Origin: Gemmatimonadota bacterium
GTDB lineage: Bacteria > Gemmatimonadota > Gemmatimonadetes > Gemmatimonadales > GWC2-71-9
Direction of reading: 5' to 3'
DNA: 64,000 nucleotides
Assembly (NCBI GenBank): GCA_039588335.1
Contig: JBDGZZ010000022.1
Span: forward strand, 1,963 to 65,962
Shown here: positions 3,420-51,171 of the stretch, one piece after another
How the letters are laid out: every line of letters starts with the position of its first letter
How positions within the stretch are numbered: the stretch's first letter is position 1
The notes under the pieces: generated by a model
The model's database searches: none
What the model was told of the DNA's origin: nothing
What the model saw: only the letters and a program-made list of their open reading frames with translations
Position numbers and translations under genes: made by a program

Positions 3420-3553
3420 CAATGCCAAGCTCAAAGTGATTGGCGGATGGGCCATGGAAACGTGGCCCATCCGCAGTTACGCCGGTATCGCCGGCGTGCC
3501 CAGCCCCTGTATCAGTTACTTGCCCTGGCACCGCCAGACCGCTATCTCAACCA

Positions 3554-33985: not shown

Positions 33986-35902
33986 ATGACCACGACAACT
34001 CCTGCCCCGAGGACGGATTCGTTGCCCAAGATAGCTACGAAGAGGAAGAGACCGAGAGTCATCAAGGTAAAAGAGCACACGGTAGAGGTCGTGTCGGACT
34101 CTGGTGAAGGCGCACAGAAGTGTAGCCAGATCTTCGCTTCCGTCTCGGCCAAGATGGGCAACGGTGTCTGGACTGTTGAGATAATACCGGCGGAGATCCA
34201 GCCGCCACCGAGGACCCCGACCAGTGCCAGCGGTAACCGAATTCGCATCGGGGCCGGCCCGGTCACCAATTGGGGAGACGCTGCCAACCTCGTCATGGCG
34301 TTCAACGAGCAAGTGTTGCTCAACCGACACCGTCTCGATGCGCTCGCCGAGGATGCGATCATCCTGATCGACGATATGTGGCTGAAGCACGATGACCCGG
34401 ACATCCGCAAGCAGTGGGAGGAAGCGATCGAGGAGATGTCCGGACGTAACTACCGGTTCGTGATGGTGCCTCTGGAGGAGCAATCTCTCACAATCGTTGA
34501 GAATCCACGCCGGGGCAAGAACATGTTCGCACTCGGTGTGCTCGCCGCAATCTACTCCCGCGACTTGGACAAGATCCGCGACTTGATTGCTCTCCAGTTC
34601 AAGCGCAAGGCCAAAGTAATCTACGAGAATAACGTGGCGCTGCTGGAGTTGGGGCACAAATGGGCGAAGGAAAACCTCGACTTCCGAGTCGAGGTTCCCA
34701 CCAAAGAGTCTGATCGCCCGATGGTGGTGATGAACGGCAACCAGGCGGTCGGGTTCGGCGCCATAGCTGCTGGCATGGAGCTGTGCTCCATGTACCCGAT
34801 CACGCCGGCTACATCGGCGTCGCACCACCTGAGCGACATCTTCGAGCAGTTTGGCGGGGTCGTACACCAGGCCGAAGACGAGATCGCGGCGGCCGGCGTG
34901 GCGATCGGCGCGTCGTTTGCCGGTAAGGTTGCGTTTACCATCACATCAGGACCAGGCATGGCGTTGAAGACCGAGTTCCTCGGACTAGCCATCATGACCG
35001 AGGTCCCGCTGGTGGTAGTCGATGTGCAGCGCGGAGGCCCAAGTACCGGGCTCCCGACCAAGATTGAGCAAGGTGACCTGCTGTCCTCCATCTTCGGTCA
35101 GCCGGGCGATGCTCCGCACGTGGTAATGGCTCCGGCAACGATGGAAGAGTGTTTCCTATGTATGACCACTGCCCGGCGGATTGCAGAGGCATTCCGCTGC
35201 GTGGTCATAGTGCTGTCGGATGCCAATCTGGCTACGGGCGTGCAGCCGTTTCCACGGCCCGACCTCAAGTCGGAGTGGATGGCAGCCCCACTCGATCTGG
35301 CTCGGGTGCCCGAGGGCACGCTTCCCTACGATTGGGATACGCAGCTCGGTCTGTCCCAGCGGGTCATTCCGGGACAGCCGGGCGGGATGCACATTGTGAC
35401 CGGGCTCTCCCACGATGAGAACAGCAAGATCGGATACAGCCCCGACGTGCATGAGCGGGGCTGTCAGATGAGAGCTCGCAAGATGGCGGTATTCCAGCAG
35501 ACCCTGAAAAAGCCGGTGGTGCATGGAGACGAGTCAGGGGACCTGCTGGTAGTTGGATGGGGGAGCACTTGGGGGGCGATCGAGGAAGCGGTGGACCGGA
35601 GTCGTGAGGAGGGTTTGTCAGTTTCCTCACTTCACCTGCGTTTCCTCTCTCCGCTGGAGCCTGGCCTCAAGGACATCTTCAGCCGATTCAAGAAAGTGAT
35701 GACGGTTGAGGTCAATTACAGCGACGACCCGGGCGACCCCTTCATCACGGATGAGAATAGGCGCCGGGGCCAGCTCAGCTGGCTGCTAAGGGCCAGCACG
35801 CTTGTCGATGTTGATTGCTGGACCAGGGTTCCGGGCCAGCCGTTGCGTCCGGTTAACATTCTAGATGCCATTCGTCGTCACATGCCGAATGGGGTGAAAT
35901 AA
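33986..35902 (+). CDS. korA: 2-oxoacid (2-oxoglutarate):ferredoxin oxidoreductase, fused gamma/alpha subunit
   Basis: 638 aa. SDSGEGAQ...AEIQPP gamma-type N-terminus followed by an alpha domain (MYPITPATSASHHL, GPGMALKTE, DVQRGGPSTGLPTK). Confidence 0.85.
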   Translation: MTTTTPAPRTDSLPKIATKRKRPRVIKVKEHTVEVVSDSGEGAQKCSQIFASVSAKMGNGVWTVEIIPAEIQPPPRTPTSASGNRIRIGAGPVTNWGDAANLVMAFNEQVLLNRHRLDALAEDAIILIDDMWLKHDDPDIRKQWEEAIEEMSGRNYRFVMVPLEEQSLTIVENPRRGKNMFALGVLAAIYSRDLDKIRDLIALQFKRKAKVIYENNVALLELGHKWAKENLDFRVEVPTKESDRPMVVMNGNQAVGFGAIAAGMELCSMYPITPATSASHHLSDIFEQFGGVVHQAEDEIAAAGVAIGASFAGKVAFTITSGPGMALKTEFLGLAIMTEVPLVVVDVQRGGPSTGLPTKIEQGDLLSSIFGQPGDAPHVVMAPATMEECFLCMTTARRIAEAFRCVVIVLSDANLATGVQPFPRPDLKSEWMAAPLDLARVPEGTLPYDWDTQLGLSQRVIPGQPGGMHIVTGLSHDENSKIGYSPDVHERGCQMRARKMAVFQQTLKKPVVHGDESGDLLVVGWGSTWGAIEEAVDRSREEGLSVSSLHLRFLSPLEPGLKDIFSRFKKVMTVEVNYSDDPGDPFITDENRRRGQLSWLLRASTLVDVDCWTRVPGQPLRPVNILDAIRRHMPNGVK

Positions 35903-36855
35903 TGACACAGACAGAGTGCTCGCTGCTGGGCTGCGGAGTAGACGAGGACCAGTGGTACTCGATGGACGATTACGAAGGTGCGGTTGCGCGCTGGTGCCCG
36001 GGATGTGGTGACCATGCAGTGCTGACGGCCGTACAACGCCTTCTCGAAGCCGAGCAGTTGGTGCCAGAGAAGACGGTGTTCGTATCGGGTATCGGTTGCT
36101 CGAGCCGCTTCCCACACTACCTGAAGACATATGGGTTCCACGGACTCCACGGCAGAGCGCTGCCGGTGGCAACGGGAGTCAAGCTGCGCCGTCCGGATCT
36201 TCAAGTATTTGCGGTCATGGGCGACGGGGATTGCTGCTCGATCGGTGCAGCTCACTGGATCCACACCGTGCGCTACAACCCCAACATGGTTGCCCTGATG
36301 CTGGACAACGGGGTATACGGTCTGACCAAGAACCAGACGTCACCAACTTCTCCGGAGGGCTATCCCAGCAACACGCAGCCACGCGGTGCGGTTCTGGAAC
36401 CGATGAACCCTATTGCGACAACGCTCGGAGTAACGAATGCGTCTTTCGTGGCTCAGACTGGCGACTGGATTCCAGATCACTTGTACGAGACCATCGCGGC
36501 CGGATATCGACACAAAGGCTTTTCGTTCATCCGAGTGCTGCAGCGGTGCCCGGCGTACACGACTCCCCTGTTCGAGGAGGCTGTGCGCAACCCCGAATTG
36601 GTGGAGTTGATGGTGCATCCTGACGGCATACCGGTCAACGGTCTGGAGCAGATCTACAAGAACCATGTACCACACGATCCATCTGATTTGCACAACGGTC
36701 AACGGCTGGCGGACTTCGATTCCAAGATCCGGCTGGGCCTGTTCTACCGAAACGAGAGCATTCCCCGCTACGAAGAGGTCCGGCACCAGGCGAACCGTAC
36801 CGCGGAGGAAAAGATACAGTTGCTGAATGCGGAGCTAGATCGATATGCCGTCTGA
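35902..36855 (+). CDS. korB: 2-oxoacid:ferredoxin oxidoreductase beta (TPP-binding) subunit
   Basis: WCPGCGDHAVL, GIGCSSRFP and GDGD motifs. The ATG overlaps the korA stop (TAATG). Confidence 0.85.
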   Translation: MTQTECSLLGCGVDEDQWYSMDDYEGAVARWCPGCGDHAVLTAVQRLLEAEQLVPEKTVFVSGIGCSSRFPHYLKTYGFHGLHGRALPVATGVKLRRPDLQVFAVMGDGDCCSIGAAHWIHTVRYNPNMVALMLDNGVYGLTKNQTSPTSPEGYPSNTQPRGAVLEPMNPIATTLGVTNASFVAQTGDWIPDHLYETIAAGYRHKGFSFIRVLQRCPAYTTPLFEEAVRNPELVELMVHPDGIPVNGLEQIYKNHVPHDPSDLHNGQRLADFDSKIRLGLFYRNESIPRYEEVRHQANRTAEEKIQLLNAELDRYAV

Positions 36856-37858
36856 CGAACGGACCGAATTGGCGATCAAGGCGCTGGCTGGGCAGACGCA
36901 AGGCTTCCGGTCGGCGCTCGCCACTACCATAGAACAGATTCGCAGTTTCTTGGCGTCGCACGGATCGGCCACTGACGGGAAGGCGGTCCGATTCATGACT
37001 GAACTGGGCCCTTTTGCCGAGGGACTGATCGATGCAGATAGATTCTCAGCGTTGTTCGCTGACAACCTGAAACTCGATACGGTCACACTCGACACCATCG
37101 GGAAAGCGCTGGATACGCTGACGGAACTCGCGGATCGCGGAGATGACATCTTCAAGGTCGATATAGAAAGCGGCGAGAGCCTCAGAGAAGGTGTCGCAGG
37201 CGCTCTGGATGATTGCGGCCGAGCATTTGGGGCGGCACGTGTGTTCGAGTTATCGAAGTTCGGCCGGTTTCCGGACAGCGAGCACGCCCGCTCACTTGGC
37301 TCTTTCCCGTTCCACCGGTGGAGCAGGGGTGAGCGAAGGCTCGCCCCTCCCTTGGTCGTAAGTGTCGACGGGAGCGATTTGCGGGCTGCAGGGCTGGCAG
37401 ATTTCATGGATGGCACGCAGAAGATAGTGCTCGTGGTAAGGGGGGAGTCGACTCCCGTGCCGCTAGTGCGCCTGATCACTCCAGGCGTGTTCGTACAACA
37501 GACAACCGAGCCGGGCGACATCAGTCGGCTGGCTGCCTGTGACGGACCGGGCGTGACAGCCATCGTTCCGGAGTCCGCCGCCCGCTTCGTTCATGACCCG
37601 TCCGTTGGTCGAGAAGCTGGAGAACGTCTCACTGTTTCGACGTTGCCAGAGGAGAGACGCAGGAAGCCGGTCGGTGGCGTGAGTGTCTCGCAGCAGTCCG
37701 AGGAGTTGCTCCAGTTGAAGGTGCTGTCGGGGCAGATGGGGGCAGCAGCTCAGGTTGGTACGGCCGAACCTGTGGGGGCAGTGAGTGCATCCGCCGATCC
37801 GGTGGACAAGTTGGCAGCCTGGCTCTTGAGTCAAGCCGACTTGAAGGACCTCGGTTAG
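36845..37858 (+). CDS. hypothetical soluble protein (337 aa) embedded between korB and rnfB
   Basis: The ATG overlaps the korB end by 11 nt, and the stop lies 9 nt before rnfB. Amino-acid composition is normal, whereas the antisense ORF 36835-37563 is S/P/A/R-biased. No recognisable motif and only 2 Cys. Confidence 0.6.
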   Translation: MPSDERTELAIKALAGQTQGFRSALATTIEQIRSFLASHGSATDGKAVRFMTELGPFAEGLIDADRFSALFADNLKLDTVTLDTIGKALDTLTELADRGDDIFKVDIESGESLREGVAGALDDCGRAFGAARVFELSKFGRFPDSEHARSLGSFPFHRWSRGERRLAPPLVVSVDGSDLRAAGLADFMDGTQKIVLVVRGESTPVPLVRLITPGVFVQQTTEPGDISRLAACDGPGVTAIVPESAARFVHDPSVGREAGERLTVSTLPEERRRKPVGGVSVSQQSEELLQLKVLSGQMGAAAQVGTAEPVGAVSASADPVDKLAAWLLSQADLKDLG

Positions 37859-37867
37859 TCTGAGCCA

Positions 37868-38719
37868 ATGGAAGTCTCGACCATCCTTGGTTCTGCAGCG
37901 ATACTCGGAGGGGTAGGGCTCACGTTCGGCACGCTGATCTCCCTTGCCCACCTGAAGCTCAAGGTTTGGGAAGATCCCCGAATCGACGAAGTCACAGACC
38001 TTCTGCCAGGTACGAACTGCGGAGCCTGCGGACGAGCCGGATGCCATGCGTTCGCTGAGGCGTTGGTAGACGGCAACGTGCAGCCGGCGACATGTACAGT
38101 CATGGGCCCTGACGATGTGTTCGACGTGGCTGGGTACCTTGGCGTGGAGGCTGGCGAAGCCAACAAACGTGTGGCTCGCCTGCTCTGCGCGGGCGGATGC
38201 GATGTCGCCGAGCAACAGGCCGAGTATAGAGGCTTGCGGAACTGCAAGGCCGCTGTGACGGTTGCCGGAGGCGGTAAGGGATGCGCCTGGGGTTGCCTAG
38301 GGCTGGACGACTGTGAACGATCGTGTGATTTCGAAGCGATCTACATGAACGCAGTTGGGATTCCGATTGTCATCCCCGAGAAGTGTACGGCGTGCGGTGA
38401 CTGCGTTGAAGCTTGCCCTCTCGATTTGTTCACTCTGATGCCGATCGAGCAGAAGTTGATCGTGCAGTGCAAGAACCTGATAGATGGTGACGAGGCGGAG
38501 GCCGCCTGCAAGGTTGCGTGCACGGCGTGCGGCAGGTGCGCCGCTGACGGGGCACCAGGCCTGATCGAGATGGTCAACGGCCTCGCAGTTATTGACTACG
38601 ACAAAAACGAGTTGGCTACTCCGGACGCCATCGCCCGGTGTCCGACGGGGGCCATCGCATGGGTTGATGGAGCTCAGTTTGCTGATACGCCCGAATTGGC
38701 GAGGAGCGCTACGGTATGA
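37868..38719 (+). CDS. rnfB: Rnf complex subunit B (membrane-anchored polyferredoxin)
   Basis: N-terminal TM helix, NCGACGRAGCHAFAEAL...ATC motif, and ferredoxin-type CTACGDCVEACP and CTACGRC...RCP clusters. Confidence 0.9.
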   Translation: MEVSTILGSAAILGGVGLTFGTLISLAHLKLKVWEDPRIDEVTDLLPGTNCGACGRAGCHAFAEALVDGNVQPATCTVMGPDDVFDVAGYLGVEAGEANKRVARLLCAGGCDVAEQQAEYRGLRNCKAAVTVAGGGKGCAWGCLGLDDCERSCDFEAIYMNAVGIPIVIPEKCTACGDCVEACPLDLFTLMPIEQKLIVQCKNLIDGDEAEAACKVACTACGRCAADGAPGLIEMVNGLAVIDYDKNELATPDAIARCPTGAIAWVDGAQFADTPELARSATV

Positions 38720-41700
38720 AACGCAACAAAGCTAGTGAAGCATCAGCTAAGGCCAAGTACCCCGGGATCGTTACCGCGGTTGACGGGAGTACGGCAGTCG
38801 TCGAGGTGGAAACTGCGGCCAGCGAAGCGGCCGGTGCATATCCGATCACGCCGTCCACGCAGATGGGTGAGGGGTGGGCTGCCGCGTTGGCGGCGGGCAG
38901 GAAGAACGTAAATGGCCGCAAGCTGATCTTCTTCGAGCCCGAAGGAGAACATGCGGCAGCGGCGGTGACCGCCGGTATGTCGATGACCGGTCTGCGGGCA
39001 ACGAATTTCTCCAGCGGTCAGGGCATCGCATACATGCACGAATCGCTGTACCCGGCGGTGGGTAAGCGGCTGACCTATGTGCTGAACGTCGCAGCTCGCG
39101 CGATGACAAAGCACGCCTTGAACGTGCATGCCGGGCACGACGACTACCACGCGGTCGATGATACGGGTTTCTTCCAGCTCTTCGCCAAGAACCCTCAGGA
39201 GATAGCCGACCTCACGCTGATCGCGCACCGGACGGCCGAGCTGTCGCTGAATCCGGGGCTGTGTGCCCAAGACGGGTTCCTCACCAGTCATGTGATCGAG
39301 TCGGTGAGGCTGCCTGAGCGCGAGATGATCAAGGAGTATCTCGGCGATCCGTCAGACATCATCGAATCGCCCACGCCGGCGCAACGTCTCGTCTTCGGTG
39401 AGAAGCGCCGCCGGATTCCGGAGATGTTCGACCTAGACTACCCGGCGATGATCGGTGTCGTTCAAAACCAGGATTCCTACAATCAGGGCGTCGCTGCCCA
39501 GCGTCCGTTCTACTTCGATCACGTAGTGGCTCTTGCCGATCAGGCGATGGCCGAGTTCGAGGCGCTGACCGGCCGGCGCTATGCTCGCGTAATGTGCTAC
39601 CGCATGGATGATGCGGAATACGTGATCGCGGGACAGGGATCGCTGGTGTCAAATGCCGAGGTTGTTTGTGACTATCTGCGCGAGAGTAGGGGTCTCAAGG
39701 TCGGGGTCCTGAATGTCACCATGTTCCGTCCGTTCCCTTCAGACCTGATGTCTGAGACGTTGCGGGGCAAGAAATCCATCACGGTACTCGAACGAACAGA
39801 TCAGCCATTGGCTGTAGATGCCCCACTATTGCGAGAGATGCGGGCGGCCATGGGCAAAGCTCTGGAGAACTCGCGGGCAGGTGCTGGTGAAGTCCCGCAT
39901 TCGGGCGTTGTGTCGTGCGGTGCAGATGAGATCCCGGAGTTCTTCTCTGGTTGCTTCGGACTCGGCAGCCGGGACATTCAGCCCGGTCAACTCGTGGCCG
40001 CAGTTGAGAACATGTTGGAGGATGGAAAGAGACGACGTCAGTTCTATCTGGGGATCGATTTCGTGCGTGCGGGGACCCAGTTGCCCAAGCTTCAAATCTG
40101 GCAGGAACAACTGCTCGAGGGCTATCCCGACATTGCGGATCTGGCGCTGGCGTCGAAGGAGGATCTCAACCTACTGCCCGAGGATGCTATCTCCATCCGT
40201 ATCCACTCAGTGGGTGGATGGGGAGCCATCACCATGGGGAAGAACCTGGCAATGACGGCGGCCGACCTTTTCGGCCTCAACATCCAGGCGAATCCCAAGT
40301 ATGGGTCCGAGAAGAAGGGGCAACCGACCACGTTCTACGCGACGCTGGCAGAAGAGGTGCTGCGGCTGAATTGTGAGTTGAAGCATGTCAACGTTGTCCT
40401 CGCTCCTGACCCCAATGTGTTCAAGCACTCGAATCCGCTGGCAGGGATTGCGGACAACGGTGTCTTCATCATCCAGAGCGATTTCGACGCAGAGACTTTC
40501 TGGAACAGCCTGCCGGGGACGGCGCAACGCGCGCTGAAGTCGAAGGGCGTGAAGGTCTACCTGCTAGACGCGTTCGCGATCGCTTCGGCCGAGGCATCGG
40601 ATCCGGCACTGCGGTATAGGATGCAGGGTGCGGCATTCATGGGTGCGTTCTTCCACGTTTCACCTCTAGTCGATCGGTATAAGCTGGAAGAGGAGAAGCT
40701 ATTTGACGGCATTCGCGCGCAGCTGAAGAAGAAGTTCGGGCACCTGGGCGAACGTGTGGTTGAGGACAACGTCCGGGTCATTCGGAGGGGCTTCGATGAG
40801 ATCAGGGAACTGGACATCGAGCACCTGAGTACAGAGAAGTCAGAAGCTGGTTCAGTGCCGCAGATGCCGGACGTTCTGGACGGTGCGGGCTGGCAGGACG
40901 GAATTGGCAACCCCGGAAGATTCTGGGAGCAGGTCTGCCATCTCTACAAGACGGGAGATGATGGCATTGCTGATCCGTTCGCGGCGATCAGCGCGATTCC
41001 GGCAGCAACGAGTACCATCCGCGATATGACGGATGTTCGCTTTGAGATCCCGGACTTCGTGGCGGAGAAGTGTACCGGTTGCGGCCAATGTTGGGTGCAA
41101 TGTCCGGATACTGCGATTCCGGGATTGGTGACCGAAGTCGACCAGGTCATCTACGCGGCCATAAATACGGTGTCCAACGGTAAGTCGTACGACCGATTGC
41201 GACAGGTGGTACCGCATATCGCTCGCGAATCGCGGCGCATAATGAAGGGCGTCGCAGTCAAATCGTTTGCCGATATCATGTCGAGCGCTTATGAGAGTGT
41301 GGCGGAAAAGCTGAAGCTCGATCCGGAGCGGCGTTCGGCACTCGACGGCGAATTCGGTTCAGTCTATTCAGCCTTGGCCGACTTCCCGCTTGCGAAAACA
41401 GCCCCATTCTTCGATGTCCCCGAGGATCAGGAGAAGGGAACCGGAGCGCTCCTCTCAATCACGGTCAATCCGGAGACGTGCAAGGGGTGCAATATCTGTG
41501 TAGACGTGTGCCCTGACGAAGCACTCGTGACGATCAAACAAGATGAAGAGGCAGTTGACAAGCTGCGGCGGAATTGGGCGTTGTGGCAAAACCTGCCGGA
41601 AACGGACGATCGGTACATCAACATCTCTAACATGGACGAAGGCATCGGGGTTCTCTCGTCCCTGTTGCTCAAGAAGCACAATTACAGGTCTATGATGGGT

Positions 41701-43755
41701 GGTGACGGGTCATGCATGGGCTGCGGTGAGAAGACGGTCATTCACCTGGTCTTGTCAGCAGTCAACGCGCTCATGATTCCACGAGTGCAGAAATATGTAG
41801 ACAAGTTGGACGACCTCATATCACGACTCGATGCCAAGGCTCGGGACATACTCGTATCTGAGGCAGATCTGGATAAGGTCGGGTCAAGTGAGGGTGAGGT
41901 GGAGATCCCCCTCGAGAAATCGAAGCAGGGACAGGTCGAGCACTTGAACAGTGTCATGCACGATCTGAAGGATCTCCGCTGGCGATATGCGGAGGGACCA
42001 AGCGGGAAAGGTAGGTCGACCTTGGGCATGACGAACGCCACGGGTTGCTCATCCGTGTGGGGGAGTACCTATCCATATAACCCGTACCCATTCCCATGGA
42101 CCAACCATCTGTTCCAGGATGCGCCTTCCATTGCGATCGGAATCTTCGAAGGCCACATGCGGAAGATGGCAGATGGTTTCATTGCCGTCCGTCGCGCTGA
42201 GCTGGAGTTGAGCGGAGAGTATGAGGCCGAGACACACGAGCCTTTCTTCTCTGAGTTTGACTGGCGCCAGTTCGATGACGCCGAGTTCGCCATGTGTCCG
42301 CCGATCTTTGCCGTGGGCGGCGACGGCGCGATGCTCGACATCGGTTTCCAGAACCTGTCGCGACTGCTGGCATCTGGGAAACCGATTCGGGTTATCGTAC
42401 TGGACACACAAGTCTACTCGAATACGGGAGGACAGGCCTGCACCAGCGGATTCCTGGGTCAGGTGTCCGACATGGCGGCCTACGGTGCCGGGCAGCATGG
42501 GAAGGAGGAGATGCGCAAGGAACTTTCTCTGATCGCCATGGCACATGGGCGAGTCTTCGTACTTCAGTCAACGCAGGCGGCTGCATCACATTTGATCGAA
42601 GGTGTACTGAAGGGGCTCCAATCCAAGTGTCCTGCCGTGTTCGGGCTGCATTGCCCTTGTCCTCCAGAGCATGGACTGGGCGACGACCAGGCCACCAGGG
42701 CATCACGTCTCGCCATGGAGAGTCGAGCCTACCCGGTTCTGATGTACGATCCGTTCGGTGGGGACTATATCAGCGAACAGCTGACTCTGGACGGGAACCC
42801 CTCGGTAGACGAGACATGGCCTACCTATGAGGTCAGCTACCTCGACGACGGTGGTGAAGAGAAACGACTCGAGTTGCCGGTTACGATTGCCGACTGGGCT
42901 GCCACGGAGACGCGGTTCCAGAAACACTTCAAGACGATCAAGGGCGATGTAGATGAAGACGGCCTGGTGCCGTTTCACGAGTACATGGTACTACCGAGCG
43001 ACGAACGTGAGGAAAAGACTCCCATCATCTATCAGATTGATGACGAGAAAAAGCTCACACGTCTCTTTGTGTCCGGCGAGATGGTCGAGCTGGCCGAGGA
43101 TCGGCTGCGAGTCTGGTCGCAACTCAAACAAATGGCTGGACTCGAGTTGGCACCCGACGTGAGGGACGGTGTCGAGTATGAACTGGAGGCGGAGTTCAAC
43201 AAGAAGGCAGAAGCTCTGCAAACAGAGTACACAGCGCAGTTGGCGCAGTTGAAGGCGCGGTATCCAGCCCTGGTGGCTCGCAAGCTGGCCGAAGGGCTCG
43301 TGCGGGCAGGAAACGGTGGGCGGACAGTCGAGGACTTGCTGGCTCAGGTTCAGGAAATGCCGCTTGCTCCCGTCACGGCCGAGATGGCTGGTGACGGCGA
43401 CCTTGCGGCGGCTCCGGCGGCTGCAACGGCGCCGGGAACAGTAGCGGCGGCTACAGCCGTGGCTGAGGCACCTGCGGCCGTAGAGGAGGAGGAAGAGGAG
43501 GGGCTGGTGATGGAGCCGTACATCGATTCGGCTCGATGCACCACGTGCGATGAATGCACGAACCTCAACAATAAGATGTACGCATACAACGAGAAGAAAC
43601 AGGCATATATAAAGGATCCCAGGGCAGGAACTTTCAAGCAACTTGTGCAGGGTGCCGAGAAGTGTCCCGTTCGCATCATACATCCGGGAACACCTCTCAA
43701 CCCGAGGGAGAAAGATCTGGAGAAGTGGGTCAAGCGGGCCGAGCCCTTCAACTGA
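38716..43755 (+). CDS. por: PFOR/NifJ-family single-polypeptide 2-oxoacid:ferredoxin oxidoreductase, unusually long (1679 aa) with a C-terminal ferredoxin domain
   Basis: AYPITPSTQMGE (domain I); HSVGGWGAITMGKN...PKYGSEKKGQPT (domain III); CTGCGQCWVQCP and CKGCNICVDVCP (domain V); GDGSCMGCGEK, ATGCSSVWG, GGDGAMLDIGFQNL and VLDTQVYSNTGGQ (TPP domain). The C-terminal part has an Ala/Pro/Glu linker followed by CTTCDEC...CP. Confidence 0.9.
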   Translation: MKRNKASEASAKAKYPGIVTAVDGSTAVVEVETAASEAAGAYPITPSTQMGEGWAAALAAGRKNVNGRKLIFFEPEGEHAAAAVTAGMSMTGLRATNFSSGQGIAYMHESLYPAVGKRLTYVLNVAARAMTKHALNVHAGHDDYHAVDDTGFFQLFAKNPQEIADLTLIAHRTAELSLNPGLCAQDGFLTSHVIESVRLPEREMIKEYLGDPSDIIESPTPAQRLVFGEKRRRIPEMFDLDYPAMIGVVQNQDSYNQGVAAQRPFYFDHVVALADQAMAEFEALTGRRYARVMCYRMDDAEYVIAGQGSLVSNAEVVCDYLRESRGLKVGVLNVTMFRPFPSDLMSETLRGKKSITVLERTDQPLAVDAPLLREMRAAMGKALENSRAGAGEVPHSGVVSCGADEIPEFFSGCFGLGSRDIQPGQLVAAVENMLEDGKRRRQFYLGIDFVRAGTQLPKLQIWQEQLLEGYPDIADLALASKEDLNLLPEDAISIRIHSVGGWGAITMGKNLAMTAADLFGLNIQANPKYGSEKKGQPTTFYATLAEEVLRLNCELKHVNVVLAPDPNVFKHSNPLAGIADNGVFIIQSDFDAETFWNSLPGTAQRALKSKGVKVYLLDAFAIASAEASDPALRYRMQGAAFMGAFFHVSPLVDRYKLEEEKLFDGIRAQLKKKFGHLGERVVEDNVRVIRRGFDEIRELDIEHLSTEKSEAGSVPQMPDVLDGAGWQDGIGNPGRFWEQVCHLYKTGDDGIADPFAAISAIPAATSTIRDMTDVRFEIPDFVAEKCTGCGQCWVQCPDTAIPGLVTEVDQVIYAAINTVSNGKSYDRLRQVVPHIARESRRIMKGVAVKSFADIMSSAYESVAEKLKLDPERRSALDGEFGSVYSALADFPLAKTAPFFDVPEDQEKGTGALLSITVNPETCKGCNICVDVCPDEALVTIKQDEEAVDKLRRNWALWQNLPETDDRYINISNMDEGIGVLSSLLLKKHNYRSMMGGDGSCMGCGEKTVIHLVLSAVNALMIPRVQKYVDKLDDLISRLDAKARDILVSEADLDKVGSSEGEVEIPLEKSKQGQVEHLNSVMHDLKDLRWRYAEGPSGKGRSTLGMTNATGCSSVWGSTYPYNPYPFPWTNHLFQDAPSIAIGIFEGHMRKMADGFIAVRRAELELSGEYEAETHEPFFSEFDWRQFDDAEFAMCPPIFAVGGDGAMLDIGFQNLSRLLASGKPIRVIVLDTQVYSNTGGQACTSGFLGQVSDMAAYGAGQHGKEEMRKELSLIAMAHGRVFVLQSTQAAASHLIEGVLKGLQSKCPAVFGLHCPCPPEHGLGDDQATRASRLAMESRAYPVLMYDPFGGDYISEQLTLDGNPSVDETWPTYEVSYLDDGGEEKRLELPVTIADWAATETRFQKHFKTIKGDVDEDGLVPFHEYMVLPSDEREEKTPIIYQIDDEKKLTRLFVSGEMVELAEDRLRVWSQLKQMAGLELAPDVRDGVEYELEAEFNKKAEALQTEYTAQLAQLKARYPALVARKLAEGLVRAGNGGRTVEDLLAQVQEMPLAPVTAEMAGDGDLAAAPAAATAPGTVAAATAVAEAPAAVEEEEEEGLVMEPYIDSARCTTCDECTNLNNKMYAYNEKKQAYIKDPRAGTFKQLVQGAEKCPVRIIHPGTPLNPREKDLEKWVKRAEPFN

Positions 43756-43762
43756 TCTTCCA

Positions 43763-45085
43763 ATGTTCCACAAGTTCACGTTCCGGCACGGGGTCCACCC
43801 GCCCGAGCTCAAGCAGCTGACCGAGTCGCTTCGGATCCGGCGCATGCCGTTTCCGGACGAAGTGGTGCTACCGCTCAGTCAGCACACTGGGAAACCGGCT
43901 ACGGTAATGGTGCGTCCGGGAGACCGGGTCGAACGCGGCGACAAGATAGCTGATGCCGACGGGTTCATCTCCGCTCCGGTCCACGCGTCCGCCGCAGGGA
44001 CAGTGGAAGACATCGGTCTGTGGCCACACCCGCTGGGGTCATACTCGCCGGCGGTCCGAATAACAGTGGACCGCTATTCGGCACAAGCTGCGAGGCCCCG
44101 AGTAGTACCGGAGTGGGAGGGCCTCACTCCCGACGGGATTCGCCAGGCCGTGAAGGACGGTGGGCTGGTGGGATTGGGAGGCGCCGCGTTCCCCACCCAT
44201 GTGAAACTGAGTCCCCCCAAAGACAAGCAACTCGACACCCTCATCATAAATGGCTGCGAGTGCGAGCCCTATCTGACGACTGACCATCGTACCATGGTGG
44301 AGTATCCCGAGCGCGTGCATCTGGGGATTCGCATAATGATGCAATGTCTGGGTGTGGGCCGCACGATGATCGGTATCGAAAAGAACAAGCCGGATGCTAT
44401 CGACGCAATTCGGGATACGCTTCCTGCCGACCTGGATGTGACGGTACATCCATTGACGGTGAAATATCCCCAGGGTGCGGAGAAGATGCTCATCGAGGCT
44501 TTGGCGGAGAGGGAGGTGCCTTCTGGAAAGCTGCCGCTAGACGCCGGTGTGGTGGTACAGAACGTTGCATCGGTTGCCACTATAGCGGAAATCTTTGAAA
44601 CCGGGCTGCCACTGATCGAGCGTATCGTCACAGTCACCGGTCACGGCATCAAGGACCCGTCCAACCTGATCGTTCCGGTCGGTACCAAATTGGCTGATCT
44701 GCTCGATACGTGTGGCGGCCTCACGGACGACGCTTTCGAGATCGTGTTTGGCGGTCCCATGATGGGTGCTGCGCAGGCCAACCTCGACGTGCCGATTCTC
44801 AAGGGCACTACTGGAGTAGTGGTCCTCACGGAATCGCAATGCAGGGCCAAGGAGTCTCATCCGTGCATCAGGTGTGGGCACTGTCTGGATGCCTGTCCCG
44901 TCTTCTTGAACCCACAGTTGTTGGGGAGTTTGGCGCGAGCAGAGCGGTGGGAAGAGATGGAAGGCAACCACCTTCTCGACTGCATGTTGTGTGGCTGCTG
45001 TTCCTATGCGTGTCCCTCCAATATTCCGCTGAGCCAGATGTTTGCACTGGGCAAGGCTGCTCTACGAAAGAGCAAGGCGGCGTGA
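43763..45085 (+). CDS. rnfC: Rnf complex subunit C
   Basis: MFHKFTFRHGVHPPE N-terminus, GLVGLGGAAFPTHVKL, CIRCGHCLDACP and CMLCGCCSYACP motifs. ATG 43763 is preferred over the track start at 43643. Confidence 0.9.
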   Translation: MFHKFTFRHGVHPPELKQLTESLRIRRMPFPDEVVLPLSQHTGKPATVMVRPGDRVERGDKIADADGFISAPVHASAAGTVEDIGLWPHPLGSYSPAVRITVDRYSAQAARPRVVPEWEGLTPDGIRQAVKDGGLVGLGGAAFPTHVKLSPPKDKQLDTLIINGCECEPYLTTDHRTMVEYPERVHLGIRIMMQCLGVGRTMIGIEKNKPDAIDAIRDTLPADLDVTVHPLTVKYPQGAEKMLIEALAEREVPSGKLPLDAGVVVQNVASVATIAEIFETGLPLIERIVTVTGHGIKDPSNLIVPVGTKLADLLDTCGGLTDDAFEIVFGGPMMGAAQANLDVPILKGTTGVVVLTESQCRAKESHPCIRCGHCLDACPVFLNPQLLGSLARAERWEEMEGNHLLDCMLCGCCSYACPSNIPLSQMFALGKAALRKSKAA

Positions 45086-46086
45086 CGACACCTTCCTTTC
45101 TGATAACTGCCTCTCCACACCTGGGATCACGCGATACCACGCCGACTATCATGTGGTCGGTAGTCCTCAGTTTAGTTCCGGTCGTGGCGGTATCGATCTT
45201 CTACTTCGGACCCTCTGCTGTCCTTGTGATTTCAGCTGCAACCGCCGGGGCAGTCATCACGGAGTATGCATTTGGTGCCAAGGGAACTCTGAAAGACGGA
45301 TCGACTGCCATAACCGGAGTGCTGCTGGGATTGACGCTCCCCCCGGGATTGCCGATATGGATGGCCTTTCTGGGTGGGGTTTTCGGTATCGGATTCGGGA
45401 AGCTGATTTTCGGAGGCCTGGGGCAGAACATCTTCAATCCAGCACTCCTTGGGCGAGCGTTCCTGCAGGCGGCTTTTCCCGTTGCGATCACGACCTGGCC
45501 AGCGCTGGGTGGTAGCTGGTGGAGTCTGCGGGGCGACAACTTCGCACTTCCCTTGATGAGTCCCAATGTCCCGGACGCTTTGACCGGTGCAACACCGCTC
45601 GGGCTCATGAAATTCGATCAGATGACGACCGCGAGCAGCGATCTAATAATGGGGTCGGTGGGTGGTTCACTGGGGGAGACTTCCGGTGTCGTCATTCTGA
45701 TTTGCGGTGCCTATCTTGCTCTGAGGAACCACCTCAATTGGCGAATCCCGGCGAGCATATTCCTGACGGTGGCAGTTTTGGCCGGCGGAGTACACTTGCT
45801 CGATCCGGTGCGTTACCCCAACGCGATCTTCATGCTGTTTTCCGGCGGCCTGATGCTGGGAGCGGTGTACATGGCGACCGACATGGTGACTTCGCCGGTC
45901 ACAAACCGCGGCTGCTGGGTGTTCGGATTCGGTATCGGGTTTCTGGTGGTGGTCATCAGACTGTGGGGTGGGCTGCCCGAAGGAGTCATGTACGCAATCC
46001 TGCTCATGAACGCGCTGGTTCCGTTCATTAATCGGGCGACGCAACCACGAGTGTTCGGTACTCGGCTGAAGGAGGCACGGTCTTGA
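45082..46086 (+). CDS. rnfD: Rnf complex subunit D
   Basis: Polytopic membrane protein. GTG overlaps the rnfC stop (GTGA). DALTGATPL flavinylation motif; YMATDMVTSP. Confidence 0.9.
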   Translation: MTTPSFLITASPHLGSRDTTPTIMWSVVLSLVPVVAVSIFYFGPSAVLVISAATAGAVITEYAFGAKGTLKDGSTAITGVLLGLTLPPGLPIWMAFLGGVFGIGFGKLIFGGLGQNIFNPALLGRAFLQAAFPVAITTWPALGGSWWSLRGDNFALPLMSPNVPDALTGATPLGLMKFDQMTTASSDLIMGSVGGSLGETSGVVILICGAYLALRNHLNWRIPASIFLTVAVLAGGVHLLDPVRYPNAIFMLFSGGLMLGAVYMATDMVTSPVTNRGCWVFGFGIGFLVVVIRLWGGLPEGVMYAILLMNALVPFINRATQPRVFGTRLKEARS

Positions 46087-46766
46087 CCGGCGGTAGCCAG
46101 CAGGGCCAGGCGAACGGACCAGGGGCACCTCCCATGAGACCGGAGGTTCCTCCGTGGAAGTTACTGTCCACGCTCGGCACGGCCGGGGCTGTTGCTGGCC
46201 TCTTGATCGTCTTCGTTTTCGTTGCGACTGAGCCGGCCATCAAGGCCCACAAGGCTGAGGTGTTGAGGTTGGCGATCCAGGAAGTCCTCAAAGGTCCTGA
46301 CAGTTTCGACACGCTGTTTGTGGTTGAGGGGAGGCTGGAGGAGGAGCCACCAGCAGGAGTGAATCTCGAGGCACTCGAGCATGTGTACGTTGGGTACGGA
46401 GTGGATGGGAACCAGCTGGGATTTGCGATTGCCTCCGGGGAACCTGGGTTTCAGGACATAATCCGACTGATCTTCGGTTATGACGCATTCAATCGTACCG
46501 TCCTGGGCATGAAGGTCTTGGAGAGCAAGGAGACACCGGGGCTAGGGGACAAGATTGAGAAGAATCTGGATTTCGTGCAACAATTCGAAGGTGCAGTGAC
46601 GCCCCTCGAGGGAGTGAACCCGAGGCGCGCCACAGGTGACGAGCACGAAATCGACATGATCACGGGAGCGACGATATCCTCCCGTGCGGTAGTACGCATC
46701 ATCAACAACGCAATGGAGCGGCTGGGGCCGCTCATTGACGAATACAATGGCGGAGGGAGCCGATGA
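46083..46766 (+). CDS. rnfG: Rnf complex subunit G (FMN-binding)
   Basis: Single N-terminal TM helix and the DMITGATISSRAV FMN-attachment motif. The TTG start overlaps the rnfD stop; an alternative ATG lies at 46134. Confidence 0.85.
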   Translation: MTGGSQQGQANGPGAPPMRPEVPPWKLLSTLGTAGAVAGLLIVFVFVATEPAIKAHKAEVLRLAIQEVLKGPDSFDTLFVVEGRLEEEPPAGVNLEALEHVYVGYGVDGNQLGFAIASGEPGFQDIIRLIFGYDAFNRTVLGMKVLESKETPGLGDKIEKNLDFVQQFEGAVTPLEGVNPRRATGDEHEIDMITGATISSRAVVRIINNAMERLGPLIDEYNGGGSR

Positions 46767-47419
46767 GAGCGACGACTCCGCAGCAGGATTTCATGCGTGG
46801 CATCTGGAGAGAGAATCCAGTGCTCATTCAGATGCTCGGACTGTGTCCTGCGCTGGCGGTGACCAATACGGTGAAAAACAGCATCGCCATGGGGCTCGCC
46901 ACGTTTTTCGTGCTGACGGGGTCCAGCCTCTTGGTCTCTCTATTCAAGCGGTTCATACCGCACGAGGTACGCATATCCACATATATCCTGATCATTGCGA
47001 CGTTCGTGACGATCGCCGACATGACGCTCGAGGCGGTGGTCCCCGACATACACAAGGCGTTGGGTGCGTTCATTGCGCTGATCGTTGTCAACTGCATGAT
47101 CCTCGGACGCCAAGAAGCCTTTGCGTCGAAGAAGCCGGTGGGCCGCGCGCTATTGGACGCCTTTGGAACGGGGATCGGTTTCATAATAGCCATGTTGATG
47201 ATGGGTACCGTCAGGGAAGTGTTGGGCAACGGATCGTTCCTCGGCGTCAGCCTGTTCGGTCCCAATTTTGAACCGTGGGTGGTGTTCATACTTCCTCCAG
47301 GCGGATTCCTGACGATCGGATTCATCTTGCTGGGGTTGAGTTGGATCGAGCGCAGGAGAAAACAGAAGCCTATGGTGCGGGAATGGCCTGAAGGCGTAGC
47401 CTCGGAGAAGGCGGCATGA
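46763..47419 (+). CDS. rnfE: Rnf complex subunit E
   Basis: NPVLIQMLGLCPALAVT motif, 6 TM helices, ATGA overlap with rnfG. Confidence 0.9.
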   Translation: MRATTPQQDFMRGIWRENPVLIQMLGLCPALAVTNTVKNSIAMGLATFFVLTGSSLLVSLFKRFIPHEVRISTYILIIATFVTIADMTLEAVVPDIHKALGAFIALIVVNCMILGRQEAFASKKPVGRALLDAFGTGIGFIIAMLMMGTVREVLGNGSFLGVSLFGPNFEPWVVFILPPGGFLTIGFILLGLSWIERRRKQKPMVREWPEGVASEKAA

Positions 47420-47997
47420 CCAGCGACCTGCTATGGATCCTGATCTCGGCGATGGTGGTAAATAACTTCACGCTCGCCTATTTCCTCGGTCTGTGCCCCT
47501 TCATGGGAGTATCTGGTCGAGTGGAGACCGCCATCAGGATGGGGGCAGCGAACATATTCGTCCTGACCATCACGGCCATCTGTGCGTGGTTTCTCAACAC
47601 ATATATTCTGCCATATGCGCCATACTTGCGACTGATTTCTTTCATTGTCGTCATAGCATCCCTGGTGCAGATCGTTGAAATGACGATCAAGAAGATCAGT
47701 CCCACGCTGTTCAGACAACTTGGGATATATTTGCCTTTGATAACCACGAACTGCGCAATCCTCGGTTTTGCTATCTTCGCAACAAACCGGGGTTACGGGT
47801 TCTTCCAAGGTCTCTCATTTGCCATCGGTGCCGGGCTTGGCCTGACGCTTGCATTGGTGCTCATGGCATCCATAAGAGAGAATAGTGAGTTGGTGGATGT
47901 ACCAGAAGTTGCCAAGGGAACGGCCCTCGTGTTCATCATTGCCGGATGTCTGTCCTTGGCGTTCATGGGATTCGCCGGACTGTTGACTTCCACATGA
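47416..47997 (+). CDS. rnfA: Rnf complex subunit A
   Basis: NNFTLAYFLGLCPFMGVS motif, 6 TM helices, ATGA overlap with rnfE. Confidence 0.9.
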   Translation: MTSDLLWILISAMVVNNFTLAYFLGLCPFMGVSGRVETAIRMGAANIFVLTITAICAWFLNTYILPYAPYLRLISFIVVIASLVQIVEMTIKKISPTLFRQLGIYLPLITTNCAILGFAIFATNRGYGFFQGLSFAIGAGLGLTLALVLMASIRENSELVDVPEVAKGTALVFIIAGCLSLAFMGFAGLLTST

Positions 47998-48167
47998 TTG
48001 AAGTCCTGGCCATTCTTGGGTTTGCAGTACTGTTCGCGGTATTTGGAGCCCTCCGGGGCAGGGTGCAGGAGTCGCATCGGTGCGATGCCTGCCCGGGCCG
48101 GGAAGATCCGGGTGCCTGCGGGATCTGTCATACCTTACGCGATATTTCGGAGTCAAGCCATGCATAA
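47994..48167 (+). CDS. 57-aa membrane miniprotein: one TM helix plus a 2x CxxC tail (NqrM-like or FeoB-associated Cys-rich type architecture)
   Basis: MIEVLAILGFAVLFAVFGALRGRVQESHRCDACPGREDPGACGICHTLRDISESSHA. The ATG overlaps the rnfA stop (ATGA), and the stop overlaps the apbE start by 8 nt. Confidence 0.55.
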   Translation: MIEVLAILGFAVLFAVFGALRGRVQESHRCDACPGREDPGACGICHTLRDISESSHA

Positions 48168-49158
48168 AACTGAGTCGACTGATGCCTCTGGTCCCAGTCG
48201 GCGTGATGTAGTCCTACTAGGGATTGGTGCGTTTGCTGTTGCGGCGGTCCCGTTCCTAGGGGTGGGCCGTAGGCGTCTCTTTAGAAGGACCGTACCCGTG
48301 ATGGGTACGGTCGCTGACATAGGTGTAGTGGACAGAAACAACGACTATGCGCAGGCTGCTATTGATGCCGCAATCCAGCAGTTACGCTACGTCGATCGCA
48401 CGATGTCGCGGTTCAGTGAGGCATCAGACGTCGGTCGGGCAAACCGATTGGCTGCTGCTGACGGTACATGCATCACGAAAGCCACAGCAACCGTGATCGA
48501 AGAGGGACTGCGTTGGGCGGCGGCCAGTGAAGGTGCGTTCGATCCATGCCTCGGCACAGCCGTCGGTCTCTGGGATGTGAAACATCGTACCAAGCCCCCG
48601 GAGAAAGACCAAGTTGCCCAACTGGCAGGCCGAAACCTCTACAGAAAGCTCGATTTGGGTGAATCCGGCGACAGGCCGGTCGTACGCCTCACAGAGGCTG
48701 ATGTCGCGATCGACCTGGGCGGCATCGCCAAGGGCTACGGAGTGGACCTGGCAGTGCAGTCGCTCAGGGAGTGGGGTATCGAACACGCGCTGGTCAACGT
48801 GGGTGGAGATCTGTACGCCATGGGTGAGTCGGAGGACGGTGATCCCTGGAGTGTAGGAGTCAGATCGCCTTACGCTCCCAGCAAGGTGACACACCGCTTC
48901 GAGATCGCCGACCAGGCAGTCGCTACCTCAGGCGATTATCTCCAGTACTTCCGTTATGGGGGCAGGAGTTACCACCATCTGCTCGATCCCAGTACGGCTG
49001 CCCCTCGACGCGGGGACGTCCACAGCGTGACGGTGACAGCCGACAATTGCATGGCTGCGGACGCCGCGGCTACTGCGGTGTTCGGAATGCCACGCGAAGA
49101 GGCAGATGCGTTACTCGGTATCAGAGCGCCCAGCGCGAAGATAGTAAGCGTGGACTAG
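48160..49158 (+). CDS. apbE: FAD:protein FMN transferase
   Basis: Export-type N-terminus (SRRDVVLLGIGAFAVAAVPF), DLGGIAKGYGVD motif, TSGDY motif. ATG 48160 is preferred over the track start at 47998. Confidence 0.85.
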   Translation: MHKTESTDASGPSRRDVVLLGIGAFAVAAVPFLGVGRRRLFRRTVPVMGTVADIGVVDRNNDYAQAAIDAAIQQLRYVDRTMSRFSEASDVGRANRLAAADGTCITKATATVIEEGLRWAAASEGAFDPCLGTAVGLWDVKHRTKPPEKDQVAQLAGRNLYRKLDLGESGDRPVVRLTEADVAIDLGGIAKGYGVDLAVQSLREWGIEHALVNVGGDLYAMGESEDGDPWSVGVRSPYAPSKVTHRFEIADQAVATSGDYLQYFRYGGRSYHHLLDPSTAAPRRGDVHSVTVTADNCMAADAAATAVFGMPREEADALLGIRAPSAKIVSVD

Positions 49159-49182: not shown

Positions 49183-49219
49183 GGGGAACGGGATATGCGC
49201 CCCGTTCCCCTTTTTCTTT
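49183..49219 (+). terminator. rho-independent terminator closing the kor-rnf-apbE operon
   Basis: GGGGAACGGG (49183-49192) and CCCGTTCCCC (49201-49210) form a perfect 10-bp stem. It is followed by TTTTTCTTT. Confidence 0.8.
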
Positions 49220-49285
49220 GGGGATGCTAATTTGGCAGTGTGGCACGAGCATGGTTACACGACGCAGTAGACGGTGGTTCTTGTC

Positions 49286-51170: not shown

Positions 51171-51171
51171 A

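Follow-up and report, generated by a model that had tools for sequence, protein, structure and literature searches.

The DNA considered here is a stretch of 64,000 nucleotides from a Gemmatimonadota bacterium (assembly GCA_039588335.1, contig JBDGZZ010000022.1, positions 1,963 to 65,962 of the forward strand; the whole stretch is called the window), and the subject is the C-terminal end of one of the proteins it encodes. This protein, called Y in what follows, is a fused 2-oxoacid:acceptor oxidoreductase resembling pyruvate:ferredoxin oxidoreductase (PFOR), with a tethered ferredoxin at its C-terminus (1679 amino acids; window positions 38716..43755, + strand). Its gene lies between rnfB and rnfC, two genes of the Rnf complex. 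The C-terminal 200 residues of Y are probably a built-in mobile electron carrier, which would operate between 2-oxoacid:ferredoxin oxidoreductases (OFORs) and RnfB.

Five properties of this C-terminal module argue for a mobile, tethered carrier: a ferredoxin with intact cluster ligands, a tether that is limited in length but free in sequence, a rigid stalk, a position between rnfB and rnfC, and a portability that extends to tandem duplication. Taken together, these properties are hard to reconcile with a static extra cluster. What the analysis shows directly is the identity of the domains, the presence of intact cofactor motifs, a linker that is disordered and variable, the order of the genes, and a module that has been transferred between two scaffold proteins. 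The first-pass annotation of this DNA had described the tail as a helix, a linker and a ferredoxin in succession, and all three are indeed encoded in frame in the open reading frame (ORF) of Y.

The ferredoxin domain

The last 84 amino acids of Y (residues 1596–1679; 43501..43752, + strand) form a ferredoxin domain. The Pfam family PF13370 (Fer4_13, “single cluster domain of ferredoxin I”) matches residues 1603–1656 with a score of 31.6 bits, above the gathering threshold of 24.5 (E 2.6e-7), so that the search of residues 1596–1679 against profiles of ferredoxin families, which the first-pass annotation had suggested as a check, came out in its favour. When the PDB was searched with phmmer, the domain matched ferredoxin I of Desulfovibrio africanus (1DAX/1FXR; E 1.7e-5) over residues 5–60 of 64, and the four cysteines of the two proteins coincide. 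The structure of the tail (residues 1396–1679) was predicted with AlphaFold2 (AF2) from a 60-sequence alignment (45–83% identity), giving a mean predicted local distance difference test score (pLDDT) of 85; in this model the ferredoxin domain is compact (pLDDT 84–96) and has a terminal helix. With the model as query, the top Foldseek match in the PDB was 1fxr_A (template modelling score 0.84, root-mean-square deviation 0.9 Å over 58 columns), followed by the ferredoxins of Pyrococcus furiosus, Bacillus thermoproteolyticus, Thermotoga maritima, Desulfovibrio gigas, Rhodopseudomonas palustris, Mycobacterium tuberculosis and Hydrogenobacter thermophilus. Ranks 1–12 are ferredoxin entries throughout, most of them monocluster ferredoxins. 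There was no Pfam or PDB match that would indicate lipoyl or biotinyl homology of the domain.

The cluster ligands are C1608, C1611 and C1614 in the motif CTTCDEC (codons at 43537..43557, + strand) and C1650, which is followed by P1651 (43663..43668, + strand). All four cysteines are invariant in the 60-sequence alignment and also in the alignment of 39 close homologues from which a second AF2 model was made (residues 700–1679, i.e., 980 amino acids; mean pLDDT 64.8), and P1651 is invariant in the former and nearly invariant in the latter. Judged by its sequence and predicted fold, the domain is a monocluster [4Fe-4S] ferredoxin. It had previously been read as a Cx2Cx2C...CP ferredoxin with a single cluster of either the 3Fe or the 4Fe type; the motif, the single cluster and the ferredoxin identity stand, whereas the 3Fe option falls away with the invariance of all four cysteines, [4Fe-4S] being expected rather than [3Fe-4S] because the second cysteine is always present. 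The domain ends in a conserved C-terminal extension of 25 amino acids (HPGTPLNPxEKDLxKWxKRAEPFN), and its net charge is +3 in the window but ranges from −13 to +14 across the family.

The stalk and the tether

Upstream of the ferredoxin domain there is a long helix, a short helix and a linker. The long helix, the “stalk”, comprises 52 residues (residues 1480–1531; 43153..43308, + strand), is predicted by AF2 as a single helix (pLDDT 92–97) and was recovered in the 980-residue model as well. The segment EAEFNKKAEALQTEYTAQLAQLKARY, which had been taken for a helical or coiled element from the letters alone, falls within it. The stalk carries the conserved motif YPxxIARRLAEGL; in the 60-sequence alignment, A1521, R1522, A1525, E1526, G1527 and L1528 of this motif vary little or not at all. 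Possibly, the stalk helices of a dimer pair as a coiled coil.

The stalk is followed by the short AF2 helix VEDLLAQVQE (residues 1538–1547; 43327..43356, + strand) and then by a low-complexity tether rich in Ala, Pro, Gly and Glu (residues 1548–1595; 43357..43500, + strand). Residues 1552–1595 have the composition A17 E8 P4 V4 T4 G3 and a net charge of −10, and residues 1562–1595 have a pLDDT below 50 and no secondary structure in the AF2 model. Among 95 homologues, the distance from the LAEGL anchor at the end of the stalk motif to the first cysteine of the ferredoxin is 68–94 amino acids (median 79), and the sequence in between is not conserved. The Ala/Pro/Glu linker assigned earlier to 43357–43500 is thus borne out by composition, by low pLDDT and by comparison of homologues. 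Both the alignments and the model suggest that it behaves as a disordered tether, limited in length and free in sequence; the tail shares with swinging-arm systems a carrier domain on a disordered Ala/Pro-rich linker of variable sequence. The stalk would span an estimated 78 Å or so (52-residue helix), to which about 45 disordered residues would add about 50 Å on average, and a reach of this order would be compatible with a PFOR-sized dimer seated on a membrane complex.

The C-terminal end of the tether is acidic. In the window it is the run E1590–E1595 (EEEEEE; 43483..43500, + strand), encoded by a (GAG)6-like repeat, which is the only DNA repeat in the linker region. In the homologue examples shown, the linker is likewise acidic just ahead of G-L-x-[ML]-E-P-[YW]-I, and in 322 tails the 14 amino acids preceding the ferredoxin domain include a mean of 4.8 acidic residues.

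Gene order and the Rnf complex

The gene for Y belongs to a 12-gene unit on the + strand with the order korA-korB-X-rnfB-Y-rnfCDGEA-apbE. The tail of Y is encoded in at least 565 species genomes (found by a scan of one genome per species), from which 80 loci were kept as a sample; all are metagenome-assembled genomes (MAGs). A search of these loci with the window proteins (tblastn) revealed the same gene order in 80 of 80, as far as the contigs extend, and the order is found also in contigs from Rokubacteria and Planctomycetota. Thus, in all 80 loci the rnf gene set is interrupted by a PFOR-like gene of 5 kb between rnfB and rnfC. The ATG of Y shares the sequence ATGA with the stop codon of rnfB (as read directly from the sequence), and rnfC starts 7 nucleotides past the stop codon of Y.

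The unit begins with a korA-like OFOR alpha/gamma gene (638 amino acids; 33986..35902; POR, POR_N and PFOR_II domains), which is syntenic in the loci that reach korA, and a korB-like OFOR beta gene (317 amino acids; 35902..36855; TPP_enzyme_C and PFO_beta_C domains), also supported by synteny. All six Rnf subunits (rnfBCDGEA type) are encoded together in the window: rnfB (283 amino acids; 37868..38719; PF04060 and Fer4 domains), rnfC (440 amino acids; 43763..45085; RnfC_N, Complex1_51K, SLBB and Fer4), rnfD (45133..46086, the start being approximate; PF03116, E 8.6e-99), rnfG (46083..46766; FMN_bind), rnfE (46763..47419; Rnf-Nqr, E 2e-63) and rnfA (47416..47997; Rnf-Nqr, E 1.3e-54). The last gene is apbE, for a flavin transferase (47998..49158; ApbE, E 1.8e-72), and directly after it there is a terminator-like hairpin (10-bp stem with 8 GC pairs, followed by a T-tract; 49183..49220, + strand).

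The RnfB of the window aligns end-to-end (residues 5–264) with that of Acetobacterium woodii (9eri_B; E 3e-56) and also matches that of Clostridium tetanomorphum (7zc6_B; E 1.6e-49); by this similarity it is of the multi-cluster, ferredoxin-accepting type. In known Rnf complexes, ferredoxin delivers its electrons to a polyferredoxin domain at the C-terminus of RnfB, and RnfC serves as the NAD(H) module; known RnfB also has a small ferredoxin-like domain of its own, which is flexibly tethered (PMC12174285). Residues 217–265 of the window RnfB form a terminal CxxCxxC...CP segment, which has weak similarity to Fer4_13 and Fer4_15 (E 0.01–0.03) and has its counterpart in the alignment with A. woodii RnfB. 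As far as sequence can suggest, the tethered ferredoxin would most obviously dock on this exposed terminal cluster domain.

A second KorAB-type OFOR is encoded on the − strand, convergent to the rnf-apbE cluster (korA-like, 606 amino acids, 51172–52992; korB-like, 368 amino acids, 50145–51251), and this arrangement recurs in locus L032. With two KorAB-type OFORs and Y, there are therefore three OFOR-type enzymes in the neighbourhood.

The catalytic core of Y

The core of Y (residues 1–1395; 38716..42900, + strand) has the domain order of fused PFOR/NifJ proteins (POR_N, PFOR_II, POR(gamma), a delta domain with 2x[4Fe-4S], TPP_enzyme_C). Pfam places POR_N at residues 34–213, PFOR_II at 300–382, POR/gamma at 500–694, two Fer4 motifs near 775–801 and 915–940, and TPP_enzyme_C at 1196–1308, ahead of the Fer4_13 domain described above. 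The nearest relatives in the PDB are the PFORs of Moorella thermoacetica (6cin_A, E 3.1e-88) and D. africanus (E 9e-84), and the score for TIGR02176, 422.5 bits, is below the curated equivalog cut-off of 911.35. A motif scan found two CxxCxxCxxxCP motifs at residues 786 and 922 (a spacing of about 125 amino acids), cysteine motifs of the proximal cluster at residues 995, 1109 and 1312, and the thiamine pyrophosphate (TPP) motif GDG...NTGGQ at residue 1201. When the scan was extended to 120 full-length sequences (the window ORF and homologues longer than 1600 amino acids), these cofactor motifs were found to be kept in 108–120 of them. Going by its motifs, Y is a divergent PFOR with a complete set of cofactor sites, and their retention in Y proteins of the window type indicates selection for catalysis.

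The 980-residue AF2 model, at low confidence, has three helices between the two cluster motifs of domain V (residues ~826–889) and several extra long helices in domain VI (e.g., residues 1004–1046). The extra helices of these regions (residues ~800–920 and ~1004–1170) could provide contact surfaces for X, KorAB or Rnf.

Between the core and the stalk there is a small alpha/beta subdomain that is specific to this family (residues 1396–1477; 42901..43146, + strand). AF2 predicts it mostly with a pLDDT above 90, as strands followed by a helix (residues 1454–1473), and it ends in the helix EMVELAEDRLRVWSQLKQMAG; by sequence it has no counterpart in the PDB. The end of the canonical PFOR had been placed at residue 1477 (near 43145), which comparison of sequences does not confirm: homology to canonical PFOR and PorB is detectable only up to about residues 1360–1395, the family profile aligns M. 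thermoacetica PFOR only to its residue 1118 of 1171 (about residue 1360 of Y), and a phmmer search of the PDB with residues 1330–1540 gave no PFOR match. Because homology to PorB and PFOR stops there, the segment running to RVWSQLKQMAGLE appears to be family-specific and is not demonstrably canonical PFOR. The start of the tail, given earlier as 43146, was also one base ahead of the codon boundary (codon 1478 begins at 43147).

X and the variant operons

The product of the gene between korB and rnfB, called X (337 amino acids; 36845..37858, + strand), has no Pfam match, no GDG motif and no cluster cysteines, and is conserved in all 80 related loci. Its relationship to PFOR became visible through a class of proteins found with the ferredoxin domain. 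Many matches to this domain are proteins of 720–880 amino acids, in which Pfam detects Fer4_13 alone. In profile–profile comparison, this 820-residue class is homologous to residues 709–1679 of Y (domains IV–VI and the tail; E 2e-122), and all cluster and TPP motifs are absent from the three members scanned. BLASTP of X against the class was marginal (E 0.002), but hhalign aligned X with its central, domain-VI-like part (residues 203–547) with a probability of 99% (E 8e-18). On these alignments, X is a degenerate pseudo-subunit resembling PFOR domain VI (the TPP/beta domain).

In some operons it is X, rather than Y, that bears the ferredoxin. These variant operons (L001–L004, L088 (Latescibacterota) and L089 (Riflebacteria)) have the order korA-korB-X-rnfB-Y-rnfC onward. 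Their X has 822–867 amino acids (1565 in L089) and bears the stalk, the linker and the ferredoxin. Their Y is complete in three operons (L002:4122–8618, L088:13556–18142 and L089:9986–14497); in these three, it has about 1500 amino acids and both CxxCxxCxxxCP motifs of domain V are kept, whereas the GDG motif for TPP, the cysteines of the proximal cluster and the ferredoxin tail are missing. From its sequence, the variant Y looks like a PFOR-derived pseudo-enzyme, which may serve only as an Fe-S relay or a scaffold; its domain V may be the relay.

In each operon in which both X and Y could be read, exactly one of the two carries a tethered ferredoxin, so that one tethered ferredoxin per operon is, by this comparison, the conserved feature. 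The genes korA and korB are present in each operon type. Since the variant module rides on a paralogue without cofactors, alongside a Y without the TPP motif, the distal cluster of PFOR is not the sole partner of the module. Moreover, because the variant operons keep the module though both PFOR paralogues have lost the TPP motif, KorAB is very probably an additional partner of the tethered ferredoxin.

Distribution of the module

The 120 best full-length homologues of Y share 66–87% identity with it, contain PF13370 in every case and, save one partial sequence, are 1645–1723 amino acids long; the closest named homologues are from Gemmatimonadota. An exhaustive HMMER search with a 90-residue segment covering the domain, counted in representatives of clusters at 50% identity, gave 1102 matches at E<=1e-3, of which 959 reach E<=1e-10; in almost all of the 150 representatives listed, the match extends to the C-terminus or nearly so. 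Most of the 80 loci are from Gemmatimonadota, the others being labelled Planctomycetota, Acidobacteriota, Rokuibacteriota, “Deltaproteobacteria”, Armatimonadota, Acidimicrobiia and Akkermansiaceae; carriers named among MAGs or in source annotations also include Rokubacteria, Myxococcota, Latescibacterota, Riflebacteria and SAR324. In the databases, the homologues are called “2-oxoacid:acceptor oxidoreductase family protein”, “ferredoxin” or “hypothetical protein”.

In three homologues (P0121, P0123 and P0181) the ferredoxin module occurs twice in a row, with an acidic or Ala/Pro-rich linker between the tandem copies. A free-standing ferredoxin homologue was not found among the matches: the short ones start within the linker, have odd N-termini or are marked “partial”, and P0127, the one short match whose contig was read, lies at a contig edge. 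In P0182 (1456 amino acids), the ferredoxin domain reads through into RnfC and RnfD, with the same ferredoxin-rnfC-rnfD adjacency; its C-terminal sequence looks out of frame, and the gene is probably frameshifted or miscalled.

The host and other genes in the window

The window encodes an O2-dependent fatty-acid desaturase (20412–21602) and a c-type cytochrome (7924–8559), and hemerythrin-domain genes lie beside two related operons (L002:11270–11731 and L005:3592–4029). Because of these genes, the host is probably exposed to O2. In such a setting, either direction of flow would gain from the tethering of low-potential electrons.

The window also contains an unusual fusion, an ORF of 1169 amino acids (3440–6949, + strand) in which a molybdopterin oxidoreductase (Fe4S4, Molybdopterin and Molydop_binding domains; residues 41–743) is joined to a domain resembling class-V aminotransferases and cysteine desulfurases (residues 787–1146).

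Proposed mechanism and alternative explanations

From the arrangement described above we infer occupancy of the cluster site, physical association with Rnf, a shuttling motion and a flow of electrons in one direction or the other. The tethered ferredoxin would dock alternately at the exit site of a 2-oxoacid oxidoreductase and at RnfB. One exit site would be the distal cluster in domain V of the PFOR-like core of Y, and a second, probably, the single-cluster KorAB of the same operon; on the Rnf side, the site would be the ferredoxin-accepting C-terminal polyferredoxin domain of the membrane-anchored RnfB. Low-potential electrons would thereby bypass the pool of soluble ferredoxin, and the assembly would be an ion-translocating 2-oxoacid:NAD+ oxidoreductase; running backwards, it would be an NADH-dependent 2-oxoacid synthase driven by the ion gradient.

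The first-pass annotation had anticipated a mobile ferredoxin carrying electrons from the distal cluster of the PFOR to RnfB or RnfC. This core idea withstood each comparative test that was run, and the mobile ferredoxin gains support from the location between rnfB and rnfC in 80 of 80 loci, from the disordered tether, from the monocluster domain and from the tandem modules. As to its partners, RnfB remains, whereas RnfC, being the NAD(H) module (PMC12174285), does not, and the variant operons speak against the distal cluster as the only donor.

Several points weigh against a mobile carrier of this kind. In the 980-residue AF2 model, the ferredoxin domain has a pLDDT below 50, so that it is placed with low confidence and the model gives no docking information. 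The long conserved helix could keep the module from moving, in which case the linker would do no more than bridge a gap. The domain charge, net basic in the window and variable across the family, is unlike that of classical acidic ferredoxins, and this may bear on the docking surfaces. Finally, judging by the gene content, the host is unlikely to be strictly anaerobic.

One alternative is a fixed wire, in which the ferredoxin would never leave a single docking place (the PFOR core, X or RnfB) and would be one more cluster in a static electron-transfer chain, the linker being a spacer from the end of the stalk. This arrangement would account for the high conservation of the stalk helix and of ARRLAEGL, for the limited length between anchor and first cysteine (68–94 amino acids) and for the conserved 25-residue extension, which suggests specific and stable contacts. 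It is nevertheless unlikely, as the module is found on two different scaffolds across lineages, a single docking site leaves the tandem duplicates unexplained, the linker far exceeds the need for a spacer and has no conserved sequence, and AF2 gave no confident docked pose.

A built-in mobile carrier could also have a narrower purpose, in which the tethered ferredoxin mainly serves KorAB and couples it to Rnf, while Y, the window version included, is chiefly a scaffold or a conduit via the clusters of domain V. OFORs of the alpha-beta type have no delta ferredoxin subunit and require an external ferredoxin, korA-korB accompanies each operon type, and the variant operons have retained the ferredoxin module although KorAB is the only OFOR in them with a recognizable TPP domain. 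However, Y of the window type keeps its TPP and Fe-S motifs in 108–120 of 120 full-length sequences, which makes a mere conduit rather improbable there. A service to KorAB overlaps with the mobile carrier proposed here and does not exclude it.

Very improbable is the production of a free 81-residue ferredoxin, besides the fusion, from an internal translation start at ATG 43510 (Met1599). The run of Glu codons GAGGAGGAGGAAGAGGAG (43483–43512) yields GGAGG, similar to a Shine–Dalgarno sequence, at 43497–43501, 8 nucleotides before this in-frame ATG, and Met is the commonest residue in its column (114 of 322 tails). However, this is only 35% of the tails (Leu occurs in 83, Asp in 59 and Ile in 22), so that an internal start at Met1599 is unlikely as a feature of the family. 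Furthermore, P0121 and P0153, which have Lys-rich linkers, keep the acidic run without a Met just ahead of the domain, and no free-standing gene came to light, the one short match whose contig was read lying at the contig edge.

An assembly or frameshift chimera was ruled out, since the reading frame is unbroken, there is no repeat apart from (GAG)6 and the architecture is shared by the 120 best full-length homologues, the 80 loci and at least 565 species genomes. A non-redox appendage for O2 protection or regulation would have a precedent in domain VII of D. africanus PFOR, whose C-terminal extension is protective, and would suit the apparent O2 exposure of the host. It is nevertheless extremely unlikely, because a merely protective peptide would need neither invariant cluster ligands nor a ferredoxin fold.

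Implications

OFORs and Rnf are normally thought to be linked by diffusible ferredoxin, and a conserved tethered ferredoxin points to channelled transfer of low-potential electrons instead. Such channelling would explain how O2-sensitive, low-potential chemistry can be carried out in hosts with O2-dependent enzymes, without a leak of electrons to O2 or to competing acceptors. A wider reading, offered tentatively and with rather more doubt than confidence, is that the whole 12-gene unit encodes a membrane supercomplex, in which KorAB and/or Y, together with X, sit on Rnf and the tethered ferredoxin replaces the soluble pool; this would tie the oxidation of 2-oxoacids obligatorily to the reduction of NAD+ and to ion pumping, or would allow an aerobe to synthesize 2-oxoacids in reverse with NADH and the ion gradient as driving forces, and in some phyla the PFOR paralogues would be pure scaffolds or wires. 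The module is widespread and uncharacterized, being present in 565 or more species genomes and in some 960 clusters at 50% identity. It could offer a natural design for engineered ferredoxin-coupled pathways with defined partners, and the PFOR-derived pseudo-enzymes are a separate lead, on catalytic subunits turning into scaffolds.

Comparison with known systems

The ferredoxin domain of Y shares its fold and its CxxCxxC...CP ligands with D. africanus ferredoxin I (1FXR/1DAX/1DFD) and with the ferredoxins of P. furiosus, T. maritima and B. thermoproteolyticus. However, D. africanus ferredoxin I is a free protein of 6 kDa, whereas the domain of Y is the C-terminus of an enzyme of 1679 amino acids, is net basic (+3) and has the 25-residue extension, which ferredoxin I lacks. 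With the canonical homodimeric PFORs (D. africanus 1B0P and M. thermoacetica 6CIN, which use soluble ferredoxin or flavodoxin), Y shares the domain order I-II-III-(IV)-V-VI, the TPP motif and the three [4Fe-4S] motifs. It differs from them in being about 500 amino acids longer, in the spacing of about 125 amino acids between its domain-V motifs, in the extra helices of domain VI (low-confidence AF2 prediction), in its stalk-tether-ferredoxin end and in being encoded inside an rnf operon.

The pyruvate:NADP+ oxidoreductase (PNO) of Euglena and Cryptosporidium is a PFOR with a flavoprotein resembling NADPH-cytochrome-P450 reductase at its C-terminus, and reduces NADP+ directly. PNO and the PFOR-like Y thus both have an electron acceptor fused at the C-terminus, but the partner in PNO is a flavoprotein, whereas Y has a tethered ferredoxin, with a separate membrane complex, Rnf, providing the NAD(H) module. 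CYP51fx of Methylococcus capsulatus, which has relatives among P450-ferredoxin fusions, has a monocluster ferredoxin attached C-terminally by a flexible linker of 20–30 residues; this ferredoxin is invisible in crystals, and the authors invoke multiple transient positions (PMC7947880). CYP51fx has three cluster cysteines, a P450 partner, a shorter linker and no stalk helix, whereas Y has four cysteines and OFOR and Rnf partners. Rnf and Nqr already transport electrons from one fixed site to another by a small, flexibly tethered ferredoxin-like domain, which lies inside RnfB, between the transmembrane helix and the polyferredoxin domain (PMC12174285), whereas the tethered domain of Y is on the donor enzyme.

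In searches of full-text literature (on Rnf with PFOR, Gemmatimonadota, Rokubacteria, Latescibacteria and PNO fusions), no PFOR gene inside an rnf operon and no ferredoxin-tailed PFOR was found. The rnf clusters of Ignavibacterium and Melioribacter have extra genes, but in a different arrangement (rnfCDGEAB and unknown genes). The monocluster ferredoxin, the fused PFOR, the Rnf complex and the fusion of a redox partner to an enzyme are known already. What appears to be undescribed is a PFOR-like protein whose gene lies between rnfB and rnfC and which ends in a stalk-and-tether ferredoxin, the migration of this module to PFOR-derived pseudo-subunits, and its wide distribution in uncultured phyla.

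There is a functional analogy, without homology, to the lipoyl domains of the E2 components of 2-oxoacid dehydrogenase complexes. In E2, Ala/Pro-rich flexible linkers allow a small carrier to visit several active sites, and there are from one to several carriers in tandem. The tail of Y shares the flexible Ala/Pro-rich linker and, in P0121, P0123 and P0181, the tandem carriers. The overall reaction would match too (2-oxoacid + coenzyme A (CoA) + NAD+ → acyl-CoA + CO2 + NADH). However, the carrier in E2 bears an acyl group on lipoamide, whereas that of Y would bear electrons on an Fe-S cluster, and the NAD+ end would be an ion-pumping membrane complex. Were the supercomplex to be real, it would be the counterpart, with ferredoxin as the swinging arm, of the pyruvate and 2-oxoglutarate dehydrogenase complexes.

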